DNA of 64,000 bases from Gallionella sp. Its GTDB lineage: Bacteria > Pseudomonadota > Gammaproteobacteria > Burkholderiales > Gallionellaceae. Positions within the stretch are counted from its first letter, which is position 1; the number at the start of each line of letters is the position of its first letter. The position numbers and the translations under genes are program-made. Below are positions 11,311 to 48,577 of the stretch, one piece after another. The stretch lies in contig JBGSKJ010000144.1 of assembly GCA_041741275.1 (NCBI GenBank), forward strand, positions 1,259 through 65,258, read 5' to 3'. Below the pieces are notes generated by a model. It was not told the DNA's origin. It did no database searches and saw only the letters and a list, made by a program, of their open reading frames with translations.

Positions 11311-11342
11311 ATTTAAGCAACCCCGGAAAACCTTTTAACCAC

Positions 11343-11402
11343 GGAACACACGGATGACACGGACAAAACCAATGCTTCCTTCCGTGTTTTTCCGTGTGTT
11401 CC
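11343..11402. repeat. intergenic hairpin with ACACGGA / TCCGTGT repeat arms
   Basis: GGAACACACGGA (11343-11354) pairs with TCCGTGTGTTCC (11391-11402). Inner ACACGGA (11357-11363) pairs with TCCGTGT (11381-11387). Confidence 0.85.
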
Positions 11403-11419
11403 CTGGTTCATTGTTTTAT

Positions 11420-27300: not shown

Positions 27301-27399
27301 TCCGGGAAGGGATCGCACCTGCGGTGCTCAAGGGAAAAGAGGGAAGGGGAAAACCGCTGCACCGCCGTTACCCTTCTCTCTTCCCCCTTCTCCCTTCAC
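27301..27399. repeat. GGGAAGG/CCTTCCC-armed intergenic hairpin (asd-leuB spacer)
   Basis: TCCGGGAAGGG...AGGGAAAAGAGGGAAGGGGAAAACCGC...GTTACCCTTCTCTCTTCCCCCTTCTCCCTTCAC. Shares blocks with 32551-32665. Confidence 0.8.
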
Positions 27400-27404
27400 T
27401 GTTG

Positions 27405-28469: not shown

Positions 28470-28488
28470 TCTGAATCCCAAAAAATAC

Positions 28489-28600
28489 GTGAAACGTGAA
28501 GGTGAAACCGTGAAAAGTGATGCCTACCCGGCGCTTCGCGCCACCCTCCCTGCCGGGAGGGTAACGTTTCACATTTCACATTTCACATTTCACATTTCAC
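28489..28600. repeat. GTGAAA/TTTCAC-armed intergenic hairpin without an ORF (leuD-leuB spacer)
   Basis: Left arm GTGAAACGTGAAGGTGAAACCGTGAAAAGTGA (28489-28520). Right arm GTTTCAC(ATTTCAC)x4 (28566-28600), which contains the leuD stop codon. The loop has its own CCCTCCC/GGGAGGG hairpin. Confidence 0.88.
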
Positions 28601-29235
28601 ACAAAAAGCCACGGTTGCGCGGCGCGATGCTTGGCCTCATACGCCCTGATCTCATCAACATGCTGCAAGGTCAGGCCGACGTCATCCAGACCGTTCAGCA
28701 GACAATGCTTGCGGAATGTCTCGACTTCGAACTGGTATACCCCGCCGTCCGGCGCAGTGATGCTCTGCCGCTCCAGGTCGATCTTCAAACGAAAGCCCGG
28801 CGTGGCCTCCACGGCCCTGAACAGCGCATCCACCTGCTCCGCCGGCAAACGGATCGGCAGCAAACCGTTCTTGAAGCAGTTGTTGAAAAATATATCGGCG
28901 AAACCGGGCGCGATGATGGCGCGAAAGCCGAAATCCTCAAGCGCCCAGGGCGCATGCTCGCGCGAAGATCCGCAGCCGAAATTCTCTCTTGCCAGCAAGA
29001 TCTGCGCGCCCCGATAGCGCGGCTGGTTCAGCACGAAATCAGGATTGATCGGACGACGGGTGTTATCCCTGCCCGGCTCGCCGTGGTCCAGATAACGCCA
29101 TTCGTCAAACAGATTCGGGCCGAAGCCGGAACGCTTGATCGATTTCAGGAACTGCTTCGGGATGATCGCGTCGGTATCCACGTTGGCCCTGTCCAAAGGC
29201 GCTGCCAATCCGTCCAGCACAGTAAATTTCTGCAT
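28597..29235 (-). CDS. leuD: 3-isopropylmalate dehydratase small subunit
   Basis: 212 aa; [13 protein letters not shown] motif. Confidence 0.95.
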
Positions 29236-32550: not shown

Positions 32551-32665
32551 TTCCGGGAAGGGTTAAAGGGAGAAAGGTTAAGGGGGAAGGGTTAAGGGTA
32601 AAACCGCACTCACTTAATTCGGAGAGGAGTTTTTACCCTTCCCTCTTCCCTCTTCTCCCTTCTCC
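32551..32665. repeat. GGGAAGG/CCTTCCC-armed intergenic hairpin (grpE-dnaK spacer)
   Basis: TTCCGGGAAGGGTTAAAGGGAGAAAGGTTAAGGGGGAAGGGTTAAGGGTAAAACCGC...TTTTACCCTTCCCTCTTCCCTCTTCTCCCTTCTCC. Begins 2 nt after the grpE stop. Confidence 0.85.
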
Positions 32666-32675
32666 ATATCAAGCA

Positions 32676-32703
32676 CTTGAAATATCCAGCGCCGCCCTGA
32701 TGT
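32676..32703 (+). promoter_or_regulatory. possible sigma32 promoter of dnaK (weaker -10)
   Basis: CTTGAAA (32676-32682), 12 nt, CCCTGATGT. The -35 element is perfect; the -10 element is only a partial match. Confidence 0.4.
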
Positions 32704-32777: not shown

Positions 32778-34706
32778 ATGGGAAAAATCATCGGTATCGA
32801 CCTGGGCACGACGAACTCTTGCGTGGCCATCATGGAAAACGGCAAGACCAAGGTGATCGAGAACGCCGAGGGCACGCGCACCACACCGTCCATCGTCGCC
32901 TACATGGAAGACGGAGAAGTGCTGGTCGGCGCGCCGGCCAAACGCCAGGCGGTGACCAACCCGAAGAACACGCTATACGGCGTGAAGCGCCTGATCGGCC
33001 GCCGCTTCGAGGAAAAGATGGTACAAAAGGACATCGATATGGTGCCGTACAACATCGTCAAGGCCAAGAATGGCGACGCATGGATCAAGGTGCGCGACAG
33101 GGAGATCTCCGCACCCGAGATTTCCGCGCAAGTGCTGGCCAAGATGAAGAAGACCGCCGAGGACTACCTTGGCGAACTGGTGACCGAAGCGGTCATCACC
33201 GTGCCTGCCTACTTCAACGATGCACAGCGCCAGGCCACCAAGGATGCCGGTCGCATCGCCGGACTGGAAGTGAAGCGCATCATCAACGAACCGACCGCGG
33301 CCGCGCTGGCGTTCGGACTGGACAAGCAGGAAGGCGACCGCAAGATCGCGGTGTATGACCTGGGCGGCGGCACCTTCGACATCTCCATCATCGACATCGC
33401 CGAGATCGAAGGCGAACACCAGTTCGAGGTGATGTCCACCAACGGCGACACCTTCCTCGGTGGCGAAGACTTCGACATGCGCGTGATCGAACATCTGGTT
33501 GAAGAGTTCAAGAAGGAAAGCGGCATCGACCTGAAAAAAGACATGCTGGCACTGCAACGCCTAAAGGACGCTGCGGAAAAAGCCAAGATCGAATTGTCTT
33601 CCGCGCAACAGACCGAAGTGAACCTGCCCTATATCACCGCGGATGCCAGCGGCCCGAAACACCTGGCGGTGAAGATCACCCGTGCCAAGCTGGAAAGCCT
33701 GGTCGAAGACCTGATCGCCCGCACCATCGAGCCGTGCAAGATCGCGATGAAGGATGCGGGTGTTTCCGCGTCCGACATCTCCGACGTGATCCTGGTCGGC
33801 GGCCAGACGCGCATGCCGATGGTGCAGGAAAAGGTCAGGGAATTCTTCGGCAAGGAAGCGCGCAAGGACGTGAACCCGGACGAAGCCGTGGCTGTCGGTG
33901 CGGCGATCCAGGGCGGCGTGCTGCAAGGTGAAGTCAAGGACGTGCTGCTGCTGGACGTGACCCCGTTGTCGCTGGGTATCGAAACCATGGGCGGCGTGAT
34001 GACCAAGCTGATCAAGAAGAACACCACGATCCCGACCAAGGCCTCGCAGGTGTTCTCCACGGCCGACGACAACCAGAACGCGGTGACCATACACGTGCTG
34101 CAGGGCGAGCGTGAGATCGTTTCCGGCAACAAGAGCCTGGGGCAGTTCAATCTATCCGACATTCCGCCCGCGCCGCGCGGCATGCCGCAGATCGAAGTGA
34201 CTTTCGACATCGATGCGAACGGCATCCTGCATGTGTCGGCGAAGGACAAGGCGACCGGCAAGGAGAACAAGATCAAGATCCAGGCCAGCTCCGGCTTGAG
34301 CGAAGCGGAGATCCAGCGCATGGTGCAGGACGCGGAAGCCAACGCCGAAGACGATCGCAAGGCGGTAGAGCTGGTGACCGCTCGCAACCAGCTCGACGCG
34401 TTGATCCACTCCACGCACAAATCGCTGAAGGAATATGGCGAGCACCTGAGTGCGGACGAAAAATCTGCCATCGAAGCCGCTTTGAAAGATGCCGAAGAAG
34501 CAGTGAAGGCCGACGACAAGGATGCCATCACGGCCAAGTCTGAAGCACTGGCGACCGCCGCACAAAAGCTGGGTGAAAAGATGTATGCAGCCGAGCAGGC
34601 CAAGGCGCAAGCCTCGGATGCGGGTGCAGCATCCGGCGCGGAAGCCAAGAAGGATGAAGGCGATGTGGTGGATGCCGAGTTCACCGAAGTAAAAGACAAG
34701 CCGTGA
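32778..34706 (+). CDS. dnaK: molecular chaperone DnaK (Hsp70)
   Basis: Start at the ATG giving [14 protein letters not shown]; full Hsp70 signature. Confidence 0.98.
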
Positions 34707-34726
34707 AAAGTGAAAGGTGAAACGTG
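34703..34726. repeat. left (purine-rich) arm of the dnaK-dnaJ cassette
   Basis: GTGAAAAGTGAAAGGTGAAACGTG. Contains the dnaK stop TGA (34704-34706) and the GTG start of the enclosed ORF. Confidence 0.88.
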
Positions 34727-35080
34727 CGGCGCAATCACAAAGATTTGCGTGTATTGCAAAGTGCCATGCTACTGGTAGAGGACATCTACCGCCTCACATC
34801 CGCCTTTCCAAGGGAAGAACAATTTGGATTAACTTCGCAAATGCGCCGAGCGGCCGTTTCTGTTCCGTCAAATATAGCGGAAGGGTCGGCTCGAAGCGGC
34901 ACCAAGGAATTGCTTTACTTCCTTGGCGTAGCGACTGGTTCACTTGCTGAGCTCGACACCCAACTTGATCTTTCCATCCGTCTAAAATACTGCACTGACA
35001 TCACCTCTACCCAATCCAGGCTCGATGAGGTTTCAGCGCTCACACTAGCCCTTATGAAATCGCTCAAGGACAAGACATGA
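34724..35080 (+). CDS. four-helix-bundle protein (23S rRNA intervening-sequence protein family)
   Basis: 118 aa, GTG start. [16 protein letters not shown]...[24 protein letters not shown]...[17 protein letters not shown] matches my memory of this family. Lies in the loop of a long hairpin. Confidence 0.82.
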
Positions 35081-35134
35081 AGCCGCAACTCGTTTGGTTT
35101 CGGCATAACGCGCTAAGCGCATTAGCCTCCACCG

Positions 35135-35159
35135 CAACAAGCCGCAACGCGGCTTGTTG
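35135..35159. other. perfect 11-bp hairpin CAACAAGCCGC-AAC-GCGGCTTGTTG inside the cassette
   Basis: Read directly from the sequence. No U-tract follows; the right arm of the cassette starts immediately after it. Confidence 0.8.
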
Positions 35160-35160
35160 T

Positions 35161-35200
35161 CACGTTTCACATTTCACATTTCACTTTTCACAGCTTTCAC
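35161..35200. repeat. right (pyrimidine-rich) arm of the dnaK-dnaJ cassette
   Basis: CACGTTTCACATTTCACATTTCACTTTTCACAGCTTTCAC, complementary to 34703-34726. Ends 4 nt before the dnaJ ATG. Confidence 0.88.
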
Positions 35201-35204
35201 AGCA

Positions 35205-36329
35205 ATGAACAAAAAAGACTACTACGAAGTCCTCGGCGTCAACCGCGACGCTTCTGACGAAGAGATCAAAAAAGCTTATCGCAAACTGGCGATGAAGCAT
35301 CATCCCGACCGCAATCCGGACAACCCCAAGTCCGAGGGACATTTCAAGGAAGCCAAGGAAGCCTACGAGATACTGAGCGACACACAGAAGCGTGCCGCTT
35401 ACGATCAGCATGGCCATGCCGCATTCGAGGGCGGAAGCAATCCGTTCGGTGCGGGAGGGGCAGGCGCGGCCGGATTCGATTTTTCCGACATCTTCGGCGA
35501 CATATTTGGCGGCGGGCGCGGAAATGCCGGACGCAGCAATGTGCAGCGCGGTGCCGACCTGCGCTACAACATGGAGATCACGCTGGAACAGGCCGCGCGC
35601 GGTACCGAGACACAGATCCGCGTGCCAACCATGGCGGAATGCGAAACCTGCAAGGGCACGGGCGCCAAACCCGGCACCAGCCCGACCACCTGCACCACCT
35701 GCACCGGGCATGGCCAGGTACGCATGCAGCAGGGGTTCTTTTCCATCCAGCAAACCTGTCCGCGCTGTCACGGCACCGGCAAGATGATCGCTTCGCCCTG
35801 CAAGGATTGCAATGGCATCGGTCGCATCAAGCAGCACAAAACGCTGTCGGTGAAAATTCCCGCTGGCGTGGACACCGACGACCGGATCCGCCTCTCCGGC
35901 GAGGGCGAACATGGCGCGAATGGCGGCCCCCCCGGCGATCTGTATGTGGTGATCCACACAAAACCGCATGCGGTGTTCCAGCGCGACCACAACGACCTGC
36001 ATTGCGAGATGCCGATCAGCTTCAGCACCGCCGCGCTCGGCGGTTCGATCGAGATCCCCACGCTGGACGGAGTGGCAACGATCAAGATCCCGGCCGAGAC
36101 CCAAAGCGGCAAGATATTCCGCCTGCGCGGCAAGGGCATCAAGGGCGTGCGCAGTTCCAGTCATGGCGACTTGCACTGCCACGTGGCGGTGGAGACACCG
36201 GTGAATCTGACCGAGCGCCAGAAGGAAATGCTACGCGAGTTTGAGGCTATCAACGACAAAGACAGCGAACGCCACAACCCGCGCGCAAAATCCTGGATGG
36301 ACAAGGTCAAAGACTTTTTTGCTTCGTAA
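35205..36329 (+). CDS. dnaJ: molecular chaperone DnaJ
   Basis: Start at the ATG giving [13 protein letters not shown]-domain HPD, G/F region, four CxxCxGxG repeats. Confidence 0.97.
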
Positions 36330-36350: not shown

Positions 36351-36379
36351 AAAAACGCCTCGAACGGGGCGTTTTTTTT
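36351..36379. terminator. bidirectional rho-independent terminator between dnaJ and the convergent hydrolase gene
   Basis: AAAAACGCCTC GAAC GGGGCGTTTTTTTT. A-run and T-run flank a GC stem. Confidence 0.8.
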
Positions 36380-36393
36380 AATTCAACATGCGG

Positions 36394-40953: not shown

Positions 40954-41598
40954 CTACCTCTCAATATTGTGTGAATGGGATTCTTGGGGCGTGTTGCCAT
41001 ACGCCCCTACGGATAATGGATGCAACGAATCTTCCATCCATTGCTGCGGATTGTTGGCAACATATTCGACAATACGATTGTAATCCGCATCGTCACGGAT
41101 GATGTGTTCATAATAATTGCGCTGCCATACCGGAGCGCCGGGCGTATTACGAATTTGATTGATGCGCCTGCTTGCTGCACCCTTAAAACCACGCACCATT
41201 GCCCCAACATTGCGCGATGGCGACGTAGGGGCGTATGGCAATACGCCCTTTTCGCATGGCAATACGCTCCTGTTGTGGGAATACGCCTTATTCTGTTCAT
41301 CGCGGGAAATTGGCGTATTGCCATACGCCCCTACGATGTGGATGATGCCGTGAAAATGATTCGGCATCACCACAAATTCACCGCATTCGATTTCCAATCG
41401 AACCTCCGCCGACCTCAACCATTCAGACACCACGATTTCCCCGTACTCGTTCAATCGCATAACACCGCTTTCGATTTCACCAAACAAACATGCCTTGCCA
41501 TAAGCGCAAATAGTCACAAAATACGCCCCCGCTTGCAAATAATCGCACCCCTTCAAACGAAGGCTGCGACGGTGATGCTCGTTTGGTTGATCGGGCAT
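40954..41598 (-). CDS. REP-associated tyrosine transposase (RAYT, IS200/IS605-like Y1 HUH family)
   Basis: 214 aa; HUH motif MPNHFHGIIHI and catalytic-Tyr region QRNYYEHIIRD. Flanked by, and containing, GTAG-headed REP hairpins. Confidence 0.85.
   Translation of the reverse strand: MPDQPNEHHRRSLRLKGCDYLQAGAYFVTICAYGKACLFGEIESGVMRLNEYGEIVVSEWLRSAEVRLEIECGEFVVMPNHFHGIIHIVGAYGNTPISRDEQNKAYSHNRSVLPCEKGVLPYAPTSPSRNVGAMVRGFKGAASRRINQIRNTPGAPVWQRNYYEHIIRDDADYNRIVEYVANNPQQWMEDSLHPLSVGAYGNTPQESHSHNIER
41225..41334. repeat. inverted REP doublet (REPIN-like) lying inside the RAYT reading frame
   Basis: GTAGGGGCGTATGGCAATACGCCC ... GGCGTATTGCCATACGCCCCTAC. Translated as VGAYGNTP...GVLPYAPT. Confidence 0.85.
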
Positions 41599-41609
41599 GT
41601 TTGTCTCCC

Positions 41610-41687
41610 GTAGGGGCGTATGGCAATACGCCCTTTATGGCGCACCCTGTTACCGTTTATCATGGGCGTTTTGCCATACGCCCCTAC
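41610..41687. repeat. inverted REP doublet between the RAYT start and the MNT stop
   Basis: GTAGGGGCGTATGGCAATACGCCC (41610-41633) and GGGCGTTTTGCCATACGCCCCTAC (41664-41687). The MNT TAG stop lies within the terminal CTAC. Confidence 0.85.
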
Positions 41688-42159: not shown

Positions 42160-44745
42160 CTAATTCCGCAACGGCTTCCCATTCTTCAACATATGCTCGA
42201 TGCGCGCCTGCGTCTTCTCGGTCGCCAGCAGCTCCATGAAGTTCTTCCGCTCCAGATCGAGCAGCCATTGTTCATCCACCAGGCTGCCCGCCTCCACATC
42301 ACCGCCGCACATCGTCTCGGCGACGCGGCAGCCGATGTCGTAGTCGTGTTCGGAGATGAATCCGCCTTCCAGCATGTTGACCATCGCAGCCTTGAGGGTG
42401 GCGATGCCGGTGCGTCCGGCCACGGCGATCTGGCGCTGGTGCAGCGGCGGACGGTAGGCGGTGGCGTTAAGTGCTTTCGCCTCTTCCTTGGCGATGTGCA
42501 GCAGCTCGAAGCGGTTCAGCACGATGCGATCCGATGCTCTGAGGTAGCCCATCTCACGCGCCAGTTCGGCGCTCTTGGAGACCTCGCCCATCGCGATGTT
42601 CTGGAAATAGCGCCTGAGGTAGGGAAACACGTCGATGCGGTTGTCGCTGGCAAAACGTTGCGCTTCCTGTGCCGCGCGTTGCGCCATCTCCTTGCAACCG
42701 CCGCCTGCGGGCAATACACCGACGCCCACTTCGACCAGGCCGATGTAACTTTCCAGCGTGGCGACGATCCTTGAACAATGGATCGAGAATTCGCAGCCGC
42801 CACCGAGCGCCAGGCCATCCACAGCGGCGATGGTGGGCACCTGCGCGTATTTCAGGCGTTGCGAGACTTGCTGGAATTTGGCGACTACATCCGCAACTCG
42901 CGCCACATTTCCTGTTGCTGCATTGAACACTTCGCCCAATCCACCACCGCCTGCGACAGTATATTTGACGCGGCTTGCAGCCTGTTTAAGTTTGCCAAGC
43001 ATGCCCGCGTCTTGCGCCAATTCCTGCACGCCCTGCATCAGTTGCAGCAGGTTCGCGCCTGCCGAGAACGGCGGCTCCACTTGCCACAGGATCAGCGCGG
43101 TGAAATGCGCCTCGGCCTCATCCACCGCGCGCAGGATGCCGTCCAGCACTTCGTTGCTGACGATGTGCATCTTGGTCTTGAAACTGAGTATGGCGATGCC
43201 GTCACCCATGTGCCACATCCGCACTTCGTCGGTCTCGAACACGGTCTCGCCATAGTGGCGTTCCTCGCCGACAAGTTTGTCCGGGAAGAGTTGGCGGCGG
43301 TAGACTGGGAGTGTGGAGCGGGGTTGGTAAGTTCCTGGTGGAGTAGGGTGGATAAGCGACAGCGCATCCACCGGAACTCCGGCCCCGGCGGATAAAGGTG
43401 GATGCGCTACGCTTATCCACCCTACATTCGGAGCGAAGGAGCCTTGCGGAGTGTGAACACCGGTACGCGTTGGTTCGGTGACCCATGCCGGCAGCGGCGT
43501 GTTCGCCATCGCCTTGCCTGCCGCGATGTCGGCGGCGATCCAGCCCGCCACTTGCTGCCAGCCTGTCGCCTGCCAGATCTCGAACGGGCCGTTGTCCCAG
43601 CCGAAACCCCAGCGCACCGCGAAATCGAAATCGCGCGCGTTGTCGGCGATCACTTCCAGATACAGCGCGCAGTAGTGGAACACATCGCGGAACACCGCCC
43701 ACAGGAACTGCGCCTGCGGATGCGTGTGGTTGCGCAGCCCAGCGAGCTTCTTTGCCCAGTCGCGTTCGCGCAGGATGTCCTTTACGCCCTCGTCCACCTG
43801 GGCATCGGACAAACGATATTGTCTGGTATGCAGATCCAGCACGTGGATCTCCTTGCCGACCTTCTGGTAGATGCCGCGCTTGGACTTCTGCCCCAGCGCG
43901 CCCTGATCTACCAGATAACCGAACCAGTCCGGCAATTCGAAATGCTTGTGCCATGGGTCGTCGGTGAGGTTCTCGCGCATGGTGTTGACCACGTGCGCGA
44001 ACACGTCGAGACCGACCACATCCAGCGTGCGGAAGGTCGCGCTCTTGGGACGGCCGAGATAGCGCCCGGTCAGCGCATCCACGGTGTCGAAGCCAAGGTT
44101 GAATGCTGCCGCATGATGTTCGGTAGCGAGCATGGAAAACACGCCGATGCGGTTGGCGACGAAGTTGGGCGTGTCCTTGGCGCGCACCACGCCCTTGCCC
44201 AGCGTGGAAACGAGGAAGGTCTCCAGTTGGTCGAGCAGCGGCGCTTCGGTTGCCGCACAAGGGATCAGCTCGACCAGGTGCATGTAACGCGGCGGATTGA
44301 AAAAGTGGATGCCGCAGAAGCGGTGGCGCAGATTCTCGGGGAACGCCTGCGCCAATTGGTTGATCGACAGGCCGGAGGTGTTGCTGGCGAAGATGGCGTT
44401 ATTGTTCACGAACGGCGCAACCTTGCGGTACAGGTCGGACTTCCAGTCCATGCGCTCGGCGATCGCTTCGATGATCAGATCGCATTCGCGCAACTTCTCC
44501 AGATGCTGGTCGTAGTTGGCCGGCTGAATGAAAGTGATCCTGGCCGGGCTGGCAATGGGTGAAGGGTCGAGTTTCTTCAGCCCATCCAGCGCCTTGTTCA
44601 CGTTGCCGTTCGGATCACCCTCTTTTACGGGCAGCTCGAACAGCAGCGTCTCTACATTAGCGTTGACCAGATGTGCGGCGATCTGCGCACCCATCACACC
44701 CGCCCCCAACACGGCGACCTTGCGTATCTGAGAATTGCTTTTCAT
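42160..44745 (-). CDS. fadB: multifunctional 3-hydroxyacyl-CoA dehydrogenase / enoyl-CoA hydratase (beta-oxidation alpha subunit)
   Basis: About 861 aa from ATG 44745. N-terminal NAD motif VAVLGAGVMGAQIA, C-terminal crotonase fold. A 28-codon palindromic insert lies in the inter-domain linker. Confidence 0.9.
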   Translation of the reverse strand: MKSNSQIRKVAVLGAGVMGAQIAAHLVNANVETLLFELPVKEGDPNGNVNKALDGLKKLDPSPIASPARITFIQPANYDQHLEKLRECDLIIEAIAERMDWKSDLYRKVAPFVNNNAIFASNTSGLSINQLAQAFPENLRHRFCGIHFFNPPRYMHLVELIPCAATEAPLLDQLETFLVSTLGKGVVRAKDTPNFVANRIGVFSMLATEHHAAAFNLGFDTVDALTGRYLGRPKSATFRTLDVVGLDVFAHVVNTMRENLTDDPWHKHFELPDWFGYLVDQGALGQKSKRGIYQKVGKEIHVLDLHTRQYRLSDAQVDEGVKDILRERDWAKKLAGLRNHTHPQAQFLWAVFRDVFHYCALYLEVIADNARDFDFAVRWGFGWDNGPFEIWQATGWQQVAGWIAADIAAGKAMANTPLPAWVTEPTRTGVHTPQGSFAPNVGWISVAHPPLSAGAGVPVDALSLIHPTPPGTYQPRSTLPVYRRQLFPDKLVGEERHYGETVFETDEVRMWHMGDGIAILSFKTKMHIVSNEVLDGILRAVDEAEAHFTALILWQVEPPFSAGANLLQLMQGVQELAQDAGMLGKLKQAASRVKYTVAGGGGLGEVFNAATGNVARVADVVAKFQQVSQRLKYAQVPTIAAVDGLALGGGCEFSIHCSRIVATLESYIGLVEVGVGVLPAGGGCKEMAQRAAQEAQRFASDNRIDVFPYLRRYFQNIAMGEVSKSAELAREMGYLRASDRIVLNRFELLHIAKEEAKALNATAYRPPLHQRQIAVAGRTGIATLKAAMVNMLEGGFISEHDYDIGCRVAETMCGGDVEAGSLVDEQWLLDLERKNFMELLATEKTQARIEHMLKNGKPLRN
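43343..43425. repeat. inverted REP doublet (class 2: GTAGGGTGGATAAGCG.AGCGCATCCACC) in frame inside fadB
   Basis: GTAGGGTGGATAAGCGACAGCGCATCCACC-24 nt-GGTGGATGCGCTACGCTTATCCACCCTAC. Encodes VGWISVAHPPLSAGAGVPVDALSLIHPT. Confidence 0.88.
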
Positions 44746-48438: not shown

Positions 48439-48487
48439 CTGCATCCCTCCCTTTATGAACTGCATATTCGATCAAATAAAGTTAAAG

Positions 48488-48556
48488 TCCGTTCGGGCTG
48501 AGGTATCGAAGACCCTAGCGCTGTTGCTGACCCTTCGATACCTCAGGGCGAACGGA
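48488..48556. repeat. 23-bp-arm hairpin in the SDR-fadD spacer
   Basis: TCCGTTCGGGCTGAGGTATCGAA ... TTCGATACCTCAGGGCGAACGGA. Two central mismatches, 22-nt loop. Confidence 0.8.
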
Positions 48557-48577
48557 GTTAATATTCTCAAGCGCCAA

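Follow-up and report, generated by a model that had tools for sequence, protein, structure and literature searches.

A hairpin cassette of the rRNA intervening-sequence type, carrying a four-helix-bundle gene, between dnaK and dnaJ of a Gallionella genome

What is a 498-nt cassette with inverted, repetitive ends doing between dnaK and dnaJ, and what are its ends for? We addressed this question for a Gallionella sp. contig (GenBank assembly GCA_041741275.1, contig JBGSKJ010000144.1, positions 1,259 to 65,258), whose 64,000 nt are referred to below as the window. We read the interval as a promoter-less hairpin cassette of the type known as intervening sequences (IVSs) in ribosomal RNA (rRNA), residing here in the dnaK-dnaJ mRNA operon, whose two arms would form an RNA helix that gates translation, is cleaved by RNase III and is bound by the protein encoded in the loop; we give this reading a probability of roughly 55%. 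The locus is composed as follows.

34703-34726, plus strand (paired stretch from 34698): 5' arm, GTGAAAA GTGAAAG GTGAAAC GTG
34724-35080, plus strand: 118-aa four-helix-bundle gene (PF05635/TIGR02436, S23p/Avd-like), its GTG start inside the 5' arm
35090-35159, plus strand: extra segment after the open reading frame (ORF), found in the window only and bounded by the direct repeat AAGCCGCAAC
35161-35191, plus strand: 3' arm, CAC GTTTCAC ATTTCAC ATTTCAC TTTTCAC, followed by AGC and a further TTTCAC (35195-35200)
32778-34706, plus strand: dnaK (HSP70), from the ORF list and the HSP70 Pfam assignment in the orthologous genes of two related loci (L001 and L002)
34704-34706, plus strand: dnaK stop codon TGA, within the first GTGAAAN unit of the 5' arm
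35205-36329, plus strand: dnaJ, from the ORF list and the DnaJ Pfam domains of orthologues, with its ATG at 35205, 4 nt past the 3' arm

This anatomy bears out an original prediction made from the letters of this DNA, which had placed the dnaK stop in the first arm unit (34703-34726), a complementary TTTCAC arm (35161-35200) directly ahead of dnaJ, and, in the loop, a single ORF starting with a GTG in the arm, together with a perfect 11-bp hairpin (35135-35159). The ORF is indeed the sole long sense ORF of the loop, and the last two units of the 5' arm also create a Shine-Dalgarno (SD)-like AGGTGA (34715-34720), 3 nt ahead of its GTG; no SD is visible ahead of dnaJ in the 3' arm region. The 11-bp hairpin (35135-35145 / 35149-35159 in the repeat search) lies inside the extra segment, whose ~70 bases are absent from all relatives, their 3' arm following ~10 nt past the ORF stop. 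AAGCCGCAAC stands at both 35080-35089 and 35139-35148, and the segment 35080-35159 has the appearance of a small insertion or duplication acquired secondarily 3' of the ORF.

The arms are complementary over 29 nt (34698-34726 / 35168-35196, 90%), and the repeat search returned a second pairing of 24 nt (34703-34726 / 35161-35184, 92%). They are paired in the minimum free energy structure of the whole 526-nt region (z = -5.3), and folded alone they reach -38.3 kcal/mol (z = -8.0). The window contains 9 copies of the motif GTGAAANGTGAAA, and 100 shuffles contain none; together with the fold z-scores, these counts place the arm layout beyond chance. Within the cassette we found no promoter-like or terminator-like sites, and an Rfam scan of the window returned no known RNA family and no rRNA.

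Family membership of the 118-aa product proved clear, as had been proposed. It matches PF05635 (E = 1e-33, 116 bits, cut-off 33.8) and TIGR02436 (E = 8e-32, 109.7 bits, cut-off 24), and its closest structure is that of XCC0516 (PDB 2GSC; E = 6e-28, 50% identity). An AlphaFold model of the monomer, the only state modelled here, gives four helices (pLDDT, the predicted local distance difference test score, 96.8) in a fold like that of XCC0516 and BT_0352, with template modelling (TM) scores of 0.92 to 2GSC, 0.81 to 2RLD and 0.77 to Avd; the PDB entries 2GSC and 2RLD contain five chains each. The GTG start is supported by the alignment, since the sequence N-terminal to Met15 is conserved across the family. 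A scan of the window with a home-made hidden Markov model yielded no further four-helix-bundle ORF besides 34724-35080, and PADLOC defence-system models gave no match for the protein.

The likeness to Avd brings in a first alternative, that the cassette is the remnant of a diversity-generating retroelement (DGR) and its ORF the Avd accessory protein. The matches that would favour this origin, to the Avd equivalog NF033474, to bAvd (PF22296) and to the PHROG 'Avd protein of DGR', are weak, with 23.2 bits against a cut-off of 80 for the first and E = 0.006 and 17.4 bits against 40 for the second, and the TM score of 0.77 to Avd is set against a closest structure, XCC0516, that belongs to no DGR. 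Neither a reverse transcriptase nor a template or variable repeat lies by the cassette gene in the window, and all 20 orthologous loci are directly dnaK-dnaJ. With Avd scores far under the cut-offs and dnaK and dnaJ as neighbours, we consider a DGR origin effectively refuted.

How long has the cassette been here? The window DnaJ, that of a Gallionellaceae-like betaproteobacterium, is up to 92% identical to that of metagenome-assembled genomes (MAGs) labelled Gallionella, and homologues 66-92% identical to the cassette protein all lie between dnaK and dnaJ, including one in a Thiobacillus MAG. GTGAAAN / NTTTCAC arms are kept in all of these same-type relatives, with 3 to 5 units, of which the first includes the dnaK TGA and the last the GTG start; arms thus accompanied the ORF in every relative checked, and other arm pairs, when sought, were present both in the window and in relatives. 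Against four orthologues (84-92% identity, dS unsaturated) the ratio of nonsynonymous to synonymous substitution rates (dN/dS) is ~0.06, beside 0.05-0.14 for DnaJ in the same pairs. The cassette gene is under strong purifying selection and therefore functional, not decaying; occupancy of the same site down to 66% identity, taken with this ratio, shows that the window copy is neither recent nor in decay.

We then looked at whether the arms belong to this site or to the protein family, which is large (19,707 cluster representatives at E <= 0.001 in a library of 1.84 billion representatives). One hundred diverse library matches, 44-56% identical in the search and 42-56% in the alignment, were aligned with the window protein, and 80 metagenomic loci were fetched, of which 68 genes had enough flank for an arm test in which the upstream flank was aligned to the reverse complement of the downstream flank (score >=26); 114 pseudo-genes set at other positions of these loci served as controls. 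Complementary arms flank 54/68 family genes, as against 2/114 controls. Arrays of short tandem units are therefore a hallmark of the whole family and not a local oddity, a point that the original prediction had missed. In the 52 clearest arm pairs the best repeat period is 7 in 38 and 8 in 12, periods of 6 or 9 being almost absent, and the medians are 4.2 units per arm, 30 nt of arm and 491 nt of cassette, with the ORF filling the loop and its stop a median 7.5 nt from the 3' arm.

The unit differs at nearly every locus, yet the 38 heptamer units, once rotated, share nnAG(T/G)RR (A in 36/38, G in 35/38, T in 28/38), with which the window's AAAGTGA and AAGGTGA agree. The rotation-alignment score of this core, 169 against a shuffle mean of 155 and maximum of 166, is a narrow excess, and the column counts are the more convincing evidence. 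Mismatches in the stems are periodic, affecting 20-24% of pairs at unit positions 1-2 and 2-5% at positions 4-5 (p = 1e-11). In 18/52 cases stops occur in every frame of the 5' arm, against 7.3 expected, a tendency only; a stop triplet inside a unit of period 7 would yield stops in all three frames, and the avoidance of multiples of three in the unit period may be meaningful. The G-rich arm comes first in 45/52 arm pairs. A candidate strand bias of ORF-less hairpins, with the G-rich arm 5' in the sense of transcription, was rejected because on either strand of an inverted repeat the G arm is read first, and G-first order is instead a property of the class. An extreme cassette in another locus (L164, 112-855) has paired arms of ~150 nt, with ~21 AGTTCAC/AGTTCTT units.

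Family cassettes are tied to the gene upstream: this gene is co-directional in 36/42 cases, the downstream gene in just 23/46, and the 5' arm mostly begins no more than ~20 nt from the upstream stop codon. The upstream genes themselves are ordinary (HSP70, HldE, CysC, IspD, RuvA, HemE, IscS-like, GDP-mannose dehydratase, ABC and FtsX permeases), and no rRNA was found in the 40 family loci checked. A PF05635 gene enclosed by inverted arrays whose tandem 7/8-nt units have an AG(T/G) core, the 5' one beginning at the stop of a co-directional upstream gene, thus constitutes a widespread class of which we found no description; literature searches, which did not cover closed-access work, returned no paper linking the PF05635 family to heptamer arms.

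Two systems described elsewhere show parts of this architecture. The IVS of Coxiella burnetii measures 428-444 nt, has a 28-bp terminal stem cut mid-stem by RNase III, and carries two or three GACAGAT heptamers, in strain-dependent copy number, just upstream of its S23p ORF (PMC4990558). With the 23S rRNA IVSs of Leptospira and Coxiella our cassette shares the PF05635 family, a length of ~430-500 nt, the lack of a promoter of its own and hence transcription by the host, and complementary termini forming a stem of ~28-31 bp with mismatch and bulge; with that of Coxiella it further shares tandem heptamers in the 5' arm directly ahead of the ORF. It differs in lying in the spacer of a protein operon, whereas the IVSs lie in helix 45 of 23S rRNA, and in an ORF with an SD and under purifying selection, whereas that of Coxiella is in decay and has no SD that could be used. 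Excision by RNase III, with no religation, has been demonstrated for the rRNA-borne elements only and is predicted here by analogy. The original prediction of an IVS-like selfish cassette in an mRNA operon therefore holds in its first part, an IVS-like element outside rRNA by family, size, ~30-bp stem and heptamers; the word selfish remains unproven, because the copy is old, functional and under purifying selection.

The second system is Xanthomonas campestris, with 186 GGGAATC arrays, 70 convergent pairs of which can form stem-loops (Rehm et al. 2015, PMC4692102); the arrays are intergenic, mostly of four units, and lie on average 28 nt from the upstream gene end (PMC4692102). From the tables of that paper we find that in strain ATCC 33913 convergent GGGAATN arrays bracket XCC0516, the gene of PDB 2GSC, at ~622544-622983 (~440 nt overall), the first array lying 6 nt past bccP and overlapping the XCC0516 start, and the convergent one ~370 nt on. 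The position of XCC0516 after bccP parallels that of the dnaK-dnaJ cassette. The arrays were described as G-quadruplex-forming simple repeats, and PMC4692102 makes no link to a four-helix-bundle gene or an IVS; the GGGAATC unit, unlike most cassette arms, lacks the AG(T/G) core.

Is the cassette a fixture of this operon? A DnaJ scan, with one genome per species, gave 80 loci (DnaJ 73-92% identical), in which 77 dnaK-dnaJ spacers could be assessed and fell into four states.

8/77 species: four-helix-bundle cassette
at least 18/77 species: hairpin without ORF, its arms made of tandem 7/8-nt units
4/77 species: other inverted repeat
about 47/77 species: short spacer (64-160 nt) without arms

Empty sites thus exist in close relatives, as short armless spacers occur in the loci L023-L025, which share 88-89% DnaJ identity with the window. 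The ORF-less hairpins span the interval from dnaK stop to dnaJ start, and their unit differs in almost every lineage (TAGTCGN, AGCCTGT, CACAGAG, GGGGCTA, GGAAGTG, GATGGGT, GAGGACT), while the cassettes at this junction have three arm types, GTGAAAN, GTGAAGG and AAGGGNN. Between the window and L026, DnaJ is 91% identical (dS 0.71), but the cassette protein only 55% and the L026 arms are AAGGG, which argues that one cassette lineage replaced another. Further loci show degenerate states: L088 retains GTGAAA arms around a 90-nt loop with no ORF; in L064 (3088-3433) the four-helix-bundle gene of a GTGAAGG-armed cassette is split over two frames and is probably a frameshifted pseudogene; and in L029 (120-740) the four-helix-bundle gene of an AAGGG-armed cassette survives in its first and last codons, which enclose an unrelated ORF of ~95 codons and a REP-like (repetitive extragenic palindromic) hairpin, the cargo swapped and the arms intact. 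Over evolutionary time a single gene junction sees such cassettes gained, exchanged for others and deprived of their ORF. The original prediction of a mobile or decaying family accordingly stands as turnover on an evolutionary scale (empty spacers, two lineages, and the L088, L064 and L029 states), but not for the window copy itself.

ORF-less hairpins are also present elsewhere in the window, both the same-armed relative that had been predicted and, as likewise proposed, others with different arms.

28487-28603, minus strand, leuD-leuB: ORF-less GTGAAAN hairpin with the leuD TGA in its first unit (-61.9 kcal/mol, z = -6.7)
27305-27400, minus strand, leuB-asd: ORF-less hairpin of GGGAAGN units
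32555-32665, plus strand, between grpE and the dnaK promoter: ORF-less GGGAAGG/GTTAAGG hairpin
11328-11417, intergenic: hairpin of tandem ACACGGA units, period 8-9 (-40.6 kcal/mol, z = -7.6)

The first three occupy operon junctions. Within 64 kb there are thus two GTGAAAN copies and two GGGAAGG copies. Four relatives (L001, L002, L026, L049) carry the orthologue of the grpE-dnaK hairpin, loop included; its loop in the window (32603-32630) is the reverse complement of the relatives' loop, while the arms read alike, and DNA recombination between the arms must therefore have flipped it.

These distributions could be explained if the hairpin were a host-selected intercistronic regulator that sets the ratio of DnaK to DnaJ, whether through a stabilised upstream mRNA, attenuation of read-through or enforced translational coupling, with the four-helix-bundle gene a tolerated passenger and the arms changing through replication slippage. 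A hairpin running from dnaK stop to dnaJ start, with or without ORF, is found in at least 26/77 related species, dnaJ lacks an SD wherever the dnaK-dnaJ hairpin occurs, and the grpE-dnaK hairpin is conserved down to its loop; moreover, slippage has been put forward as the source of the bacterial excess of heptamer repeats (Mrazek 2007, cited in PMC4679880). About 47/77 relatives, however, do without any such hairpin, and the same architecture stands behind many unrelated genes. The units are unrelated among species whose DnaJ is ~90% identical, which indicates turnover and not a conserved regulatory element, and a mere passenger would account neither for a dN/dS of 0.06 nor for the family-wide association with arms. 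We therefore think a purely regulatory hairpin quite improbable.

How, then, would an IVS-type cassette operate in this mRNA? The operon is flanked by two further features.

32676-32703, plus strand: sigma-32-like heat-shock promoter of dnaK, CTTGAAA-N13-CCTGATGT, read from the sequence
36351-36385, plus strand: intrinsic terminator after dnaJ

We take the first to be a sigma-32 promoter by the consensus CTTGAAA-N13-14-CCCCATNT, and the motif is kept in L002 and L020. The cassette would be transcribed within the heat-shock dnaK-dnaJ mRNA, where the arrays are predicted to pair into a helix of ~31 bp, regularly interrupted and with one bulged unit, closing a loop of ~430 nt. At the base of this helix the stop codon of dnaK would face the start codon of dnaJ, which lacks an SD, so that ribosomes terminating on dnaK would melt the base and expose the start of dnaJ, a case of classical translational coupling. 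The top of the helix would bury the SD and GTG of the cassette gene, whose translation would then fall mainly in the period preceding synthesis of the 3' arm, or in times when ribosomes keep the helix from closing. Once closed, the helix, at more than two turns, would be a substrate for RNase III as in rRNA IVSs, releasing separate dnaK, cassette and dnaJ RNAs.

Binding by the cassette protein is suggested by Avd of the Bordetella phage BPP-1, whose pentamer holds on to an RNA stem-loop adjacent to its own gene with the same residues of each protomer, flipped-out RNA bases being lodged between protomers (bioRxiv 10.1101/2023.10.23.563531). The cassette protein has the same fold, and its solved relatives have five chains per entry as Avd is pentameric, but it scores under the Avd family cut-offs and has no reverse transcriptase, template or variable repeat nearby. 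By this analogy a pentameric cassette protein probably binds the arm helix, and the periodic mismatches of the stems may be its points of contact, comparable to the bases flipped out by Avd.

Several points weigh against the RNA-level scheme. Pairing, cleavage and coupling in vivo are predictions. Paired units are mismatched at their seventh position in several orthologues, making the helix weaker than a perfect RNase III substrate, and purifying selection shows that the protein matters without saying for what. Cassettes follow many unrelated genes, so nothing ties the protein to chaperone function. Lastly, sense-strand G.U and A.C mismatches number 68 and 47 (p = 0.06), and 16 and 24 in a second set; as these counts are unclear, complementarity could be kept or generated at the DNA level.

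This last point leads to the alternative of a mobile element acting on DNA, in which the arrays are terminal inverted repeats with iterated binding sites, the protein is the element's own trans-acting factor, the ORF-less hairpins are non-autonomous, MITE-like derivatives, and any effects on RNA are by-products. Inverted arrays do bound the cassette both here and across the family, as terminal inverted repeats would, and the G.U and A.C counts give no clear RNA signature. Turnover at dnaK-dnaJ among close relatives, with unrelated cassette lineages at that site, empty, ORF-less and ORF-bearing states across 77 species, and copies that are ORF-less, frameshifted or ORF-replaced, would be expected of such an element, and the flipped grpE-dnaK loop records recombination between arms in DNA. 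ORF-less hairpins, moreover, share the unit of the resident cassette in the same genome: GTGAAAN recurs at leuD-leuB in the window, L026 and L049 carry AAGGG at both grpE-dnaK and dnaK-dnaJ, and Xanthomonas combines its 186 GGGAATC arrays with a GGGAATN-flanked XCC0516. On the other side, profile searches found no nuclease, recombinase or polymerase domain in the cassette, and no target-site duplication is recognisable at either of the two GTGAAAN copies; no filled/empty pair can be aligned, because the element replaces the entire spacer. The orthologous cassette has been stable down to 66% protein identity, and the tie to a co-directional upstream stop together with the buried SD and start suggests constraints of transcription and translation. 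We hold a DNA-level element to be possible but unlikely.

Returning to the RNA-level reading, a bolder form of it, which we hold to be possible but unlikely, is that the PF05635 pentamer reads the repeats in the arms of its own hairpin, each protomer contacting one 7-8-nt unit by way of the periodic mismatches, much as Avd holds its stem-loop, in a ribonucleoprotein that protects, processes or copies the cassette RNA. If so, the cassettes and the far commoner ORF-less hairpins would be the autonomous and non-autonomous members of an unrecognised family of mobile RNA hairpins, and a single mechanism would cover ORF-bearing rRNA IVSs, the bacterial heptamer excess (Xanthomonas GGGAATC and the cyanobacterial short tandemly repeated repetitive sequences, STRR) and the function of PF05635. 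Cyanobacterial STRR are tandem heptamers in intergenic DNA.

ORF-bearing IVSs have so far passed for oddities of rRNA genes, and the protein they encode has been listed as a domain whose function is unknown; PF05635-type domains are still termed uncharacterised in recent papers. Our sample suggests that the rRNA-borne copies are the exception, since the sampled cassettes lie at stop codons of ordinary protein genes, often in tight operons (dnaK-dnaJ, accB-accC). The class connects the origin of IVSs, the unexplained heptamer excess of bacteria and Avd-like pentamers outside DGRs, and the dnaK-dnaJ cassette offers a simple model locus for them. Such cassettes may set expression ratios of essential neighbours, and they mark places where genome annotation splits conserved operons.

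The ORF-less heptamer hairpins also invite comparison with other intergenic repeats. REP sequences, bacterial interspersed mosaic elements (BIMEs) and Neisseria Correia elements are intergenic inverted repeats in operons that are co-transcribed and can stabilise or cleave mRNA, Correia elements being cut by RNase III and REPs depending on a REP-associated tyrosine transposase (RAYT). They have in common with the ORF-less hairpins that most copies lack an ORF; their arms, however, are unique sequences with no protein gene in the loop, whereas cassette arms consist of tandem 7/8-nt units. The window contains a REP family of its own, GTAGGGGCGTATGGCAATACGCCCC, with five copies flanking a minus-strand ORF (40987-41687), one REP pair (41224-41335) interrupting that ORF, which contains …MPNHFHGII… and which we take to be RAYT-like; this system is unrelated to the heptamer hairpins. 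Two intergenic inverted repeats without tandem-unit arms, at 43343-43425 and 48485-48559, consist of GTAGGGTGGATAAGCG (16/16 bp) and a 27-nt pair (89%), respectively.

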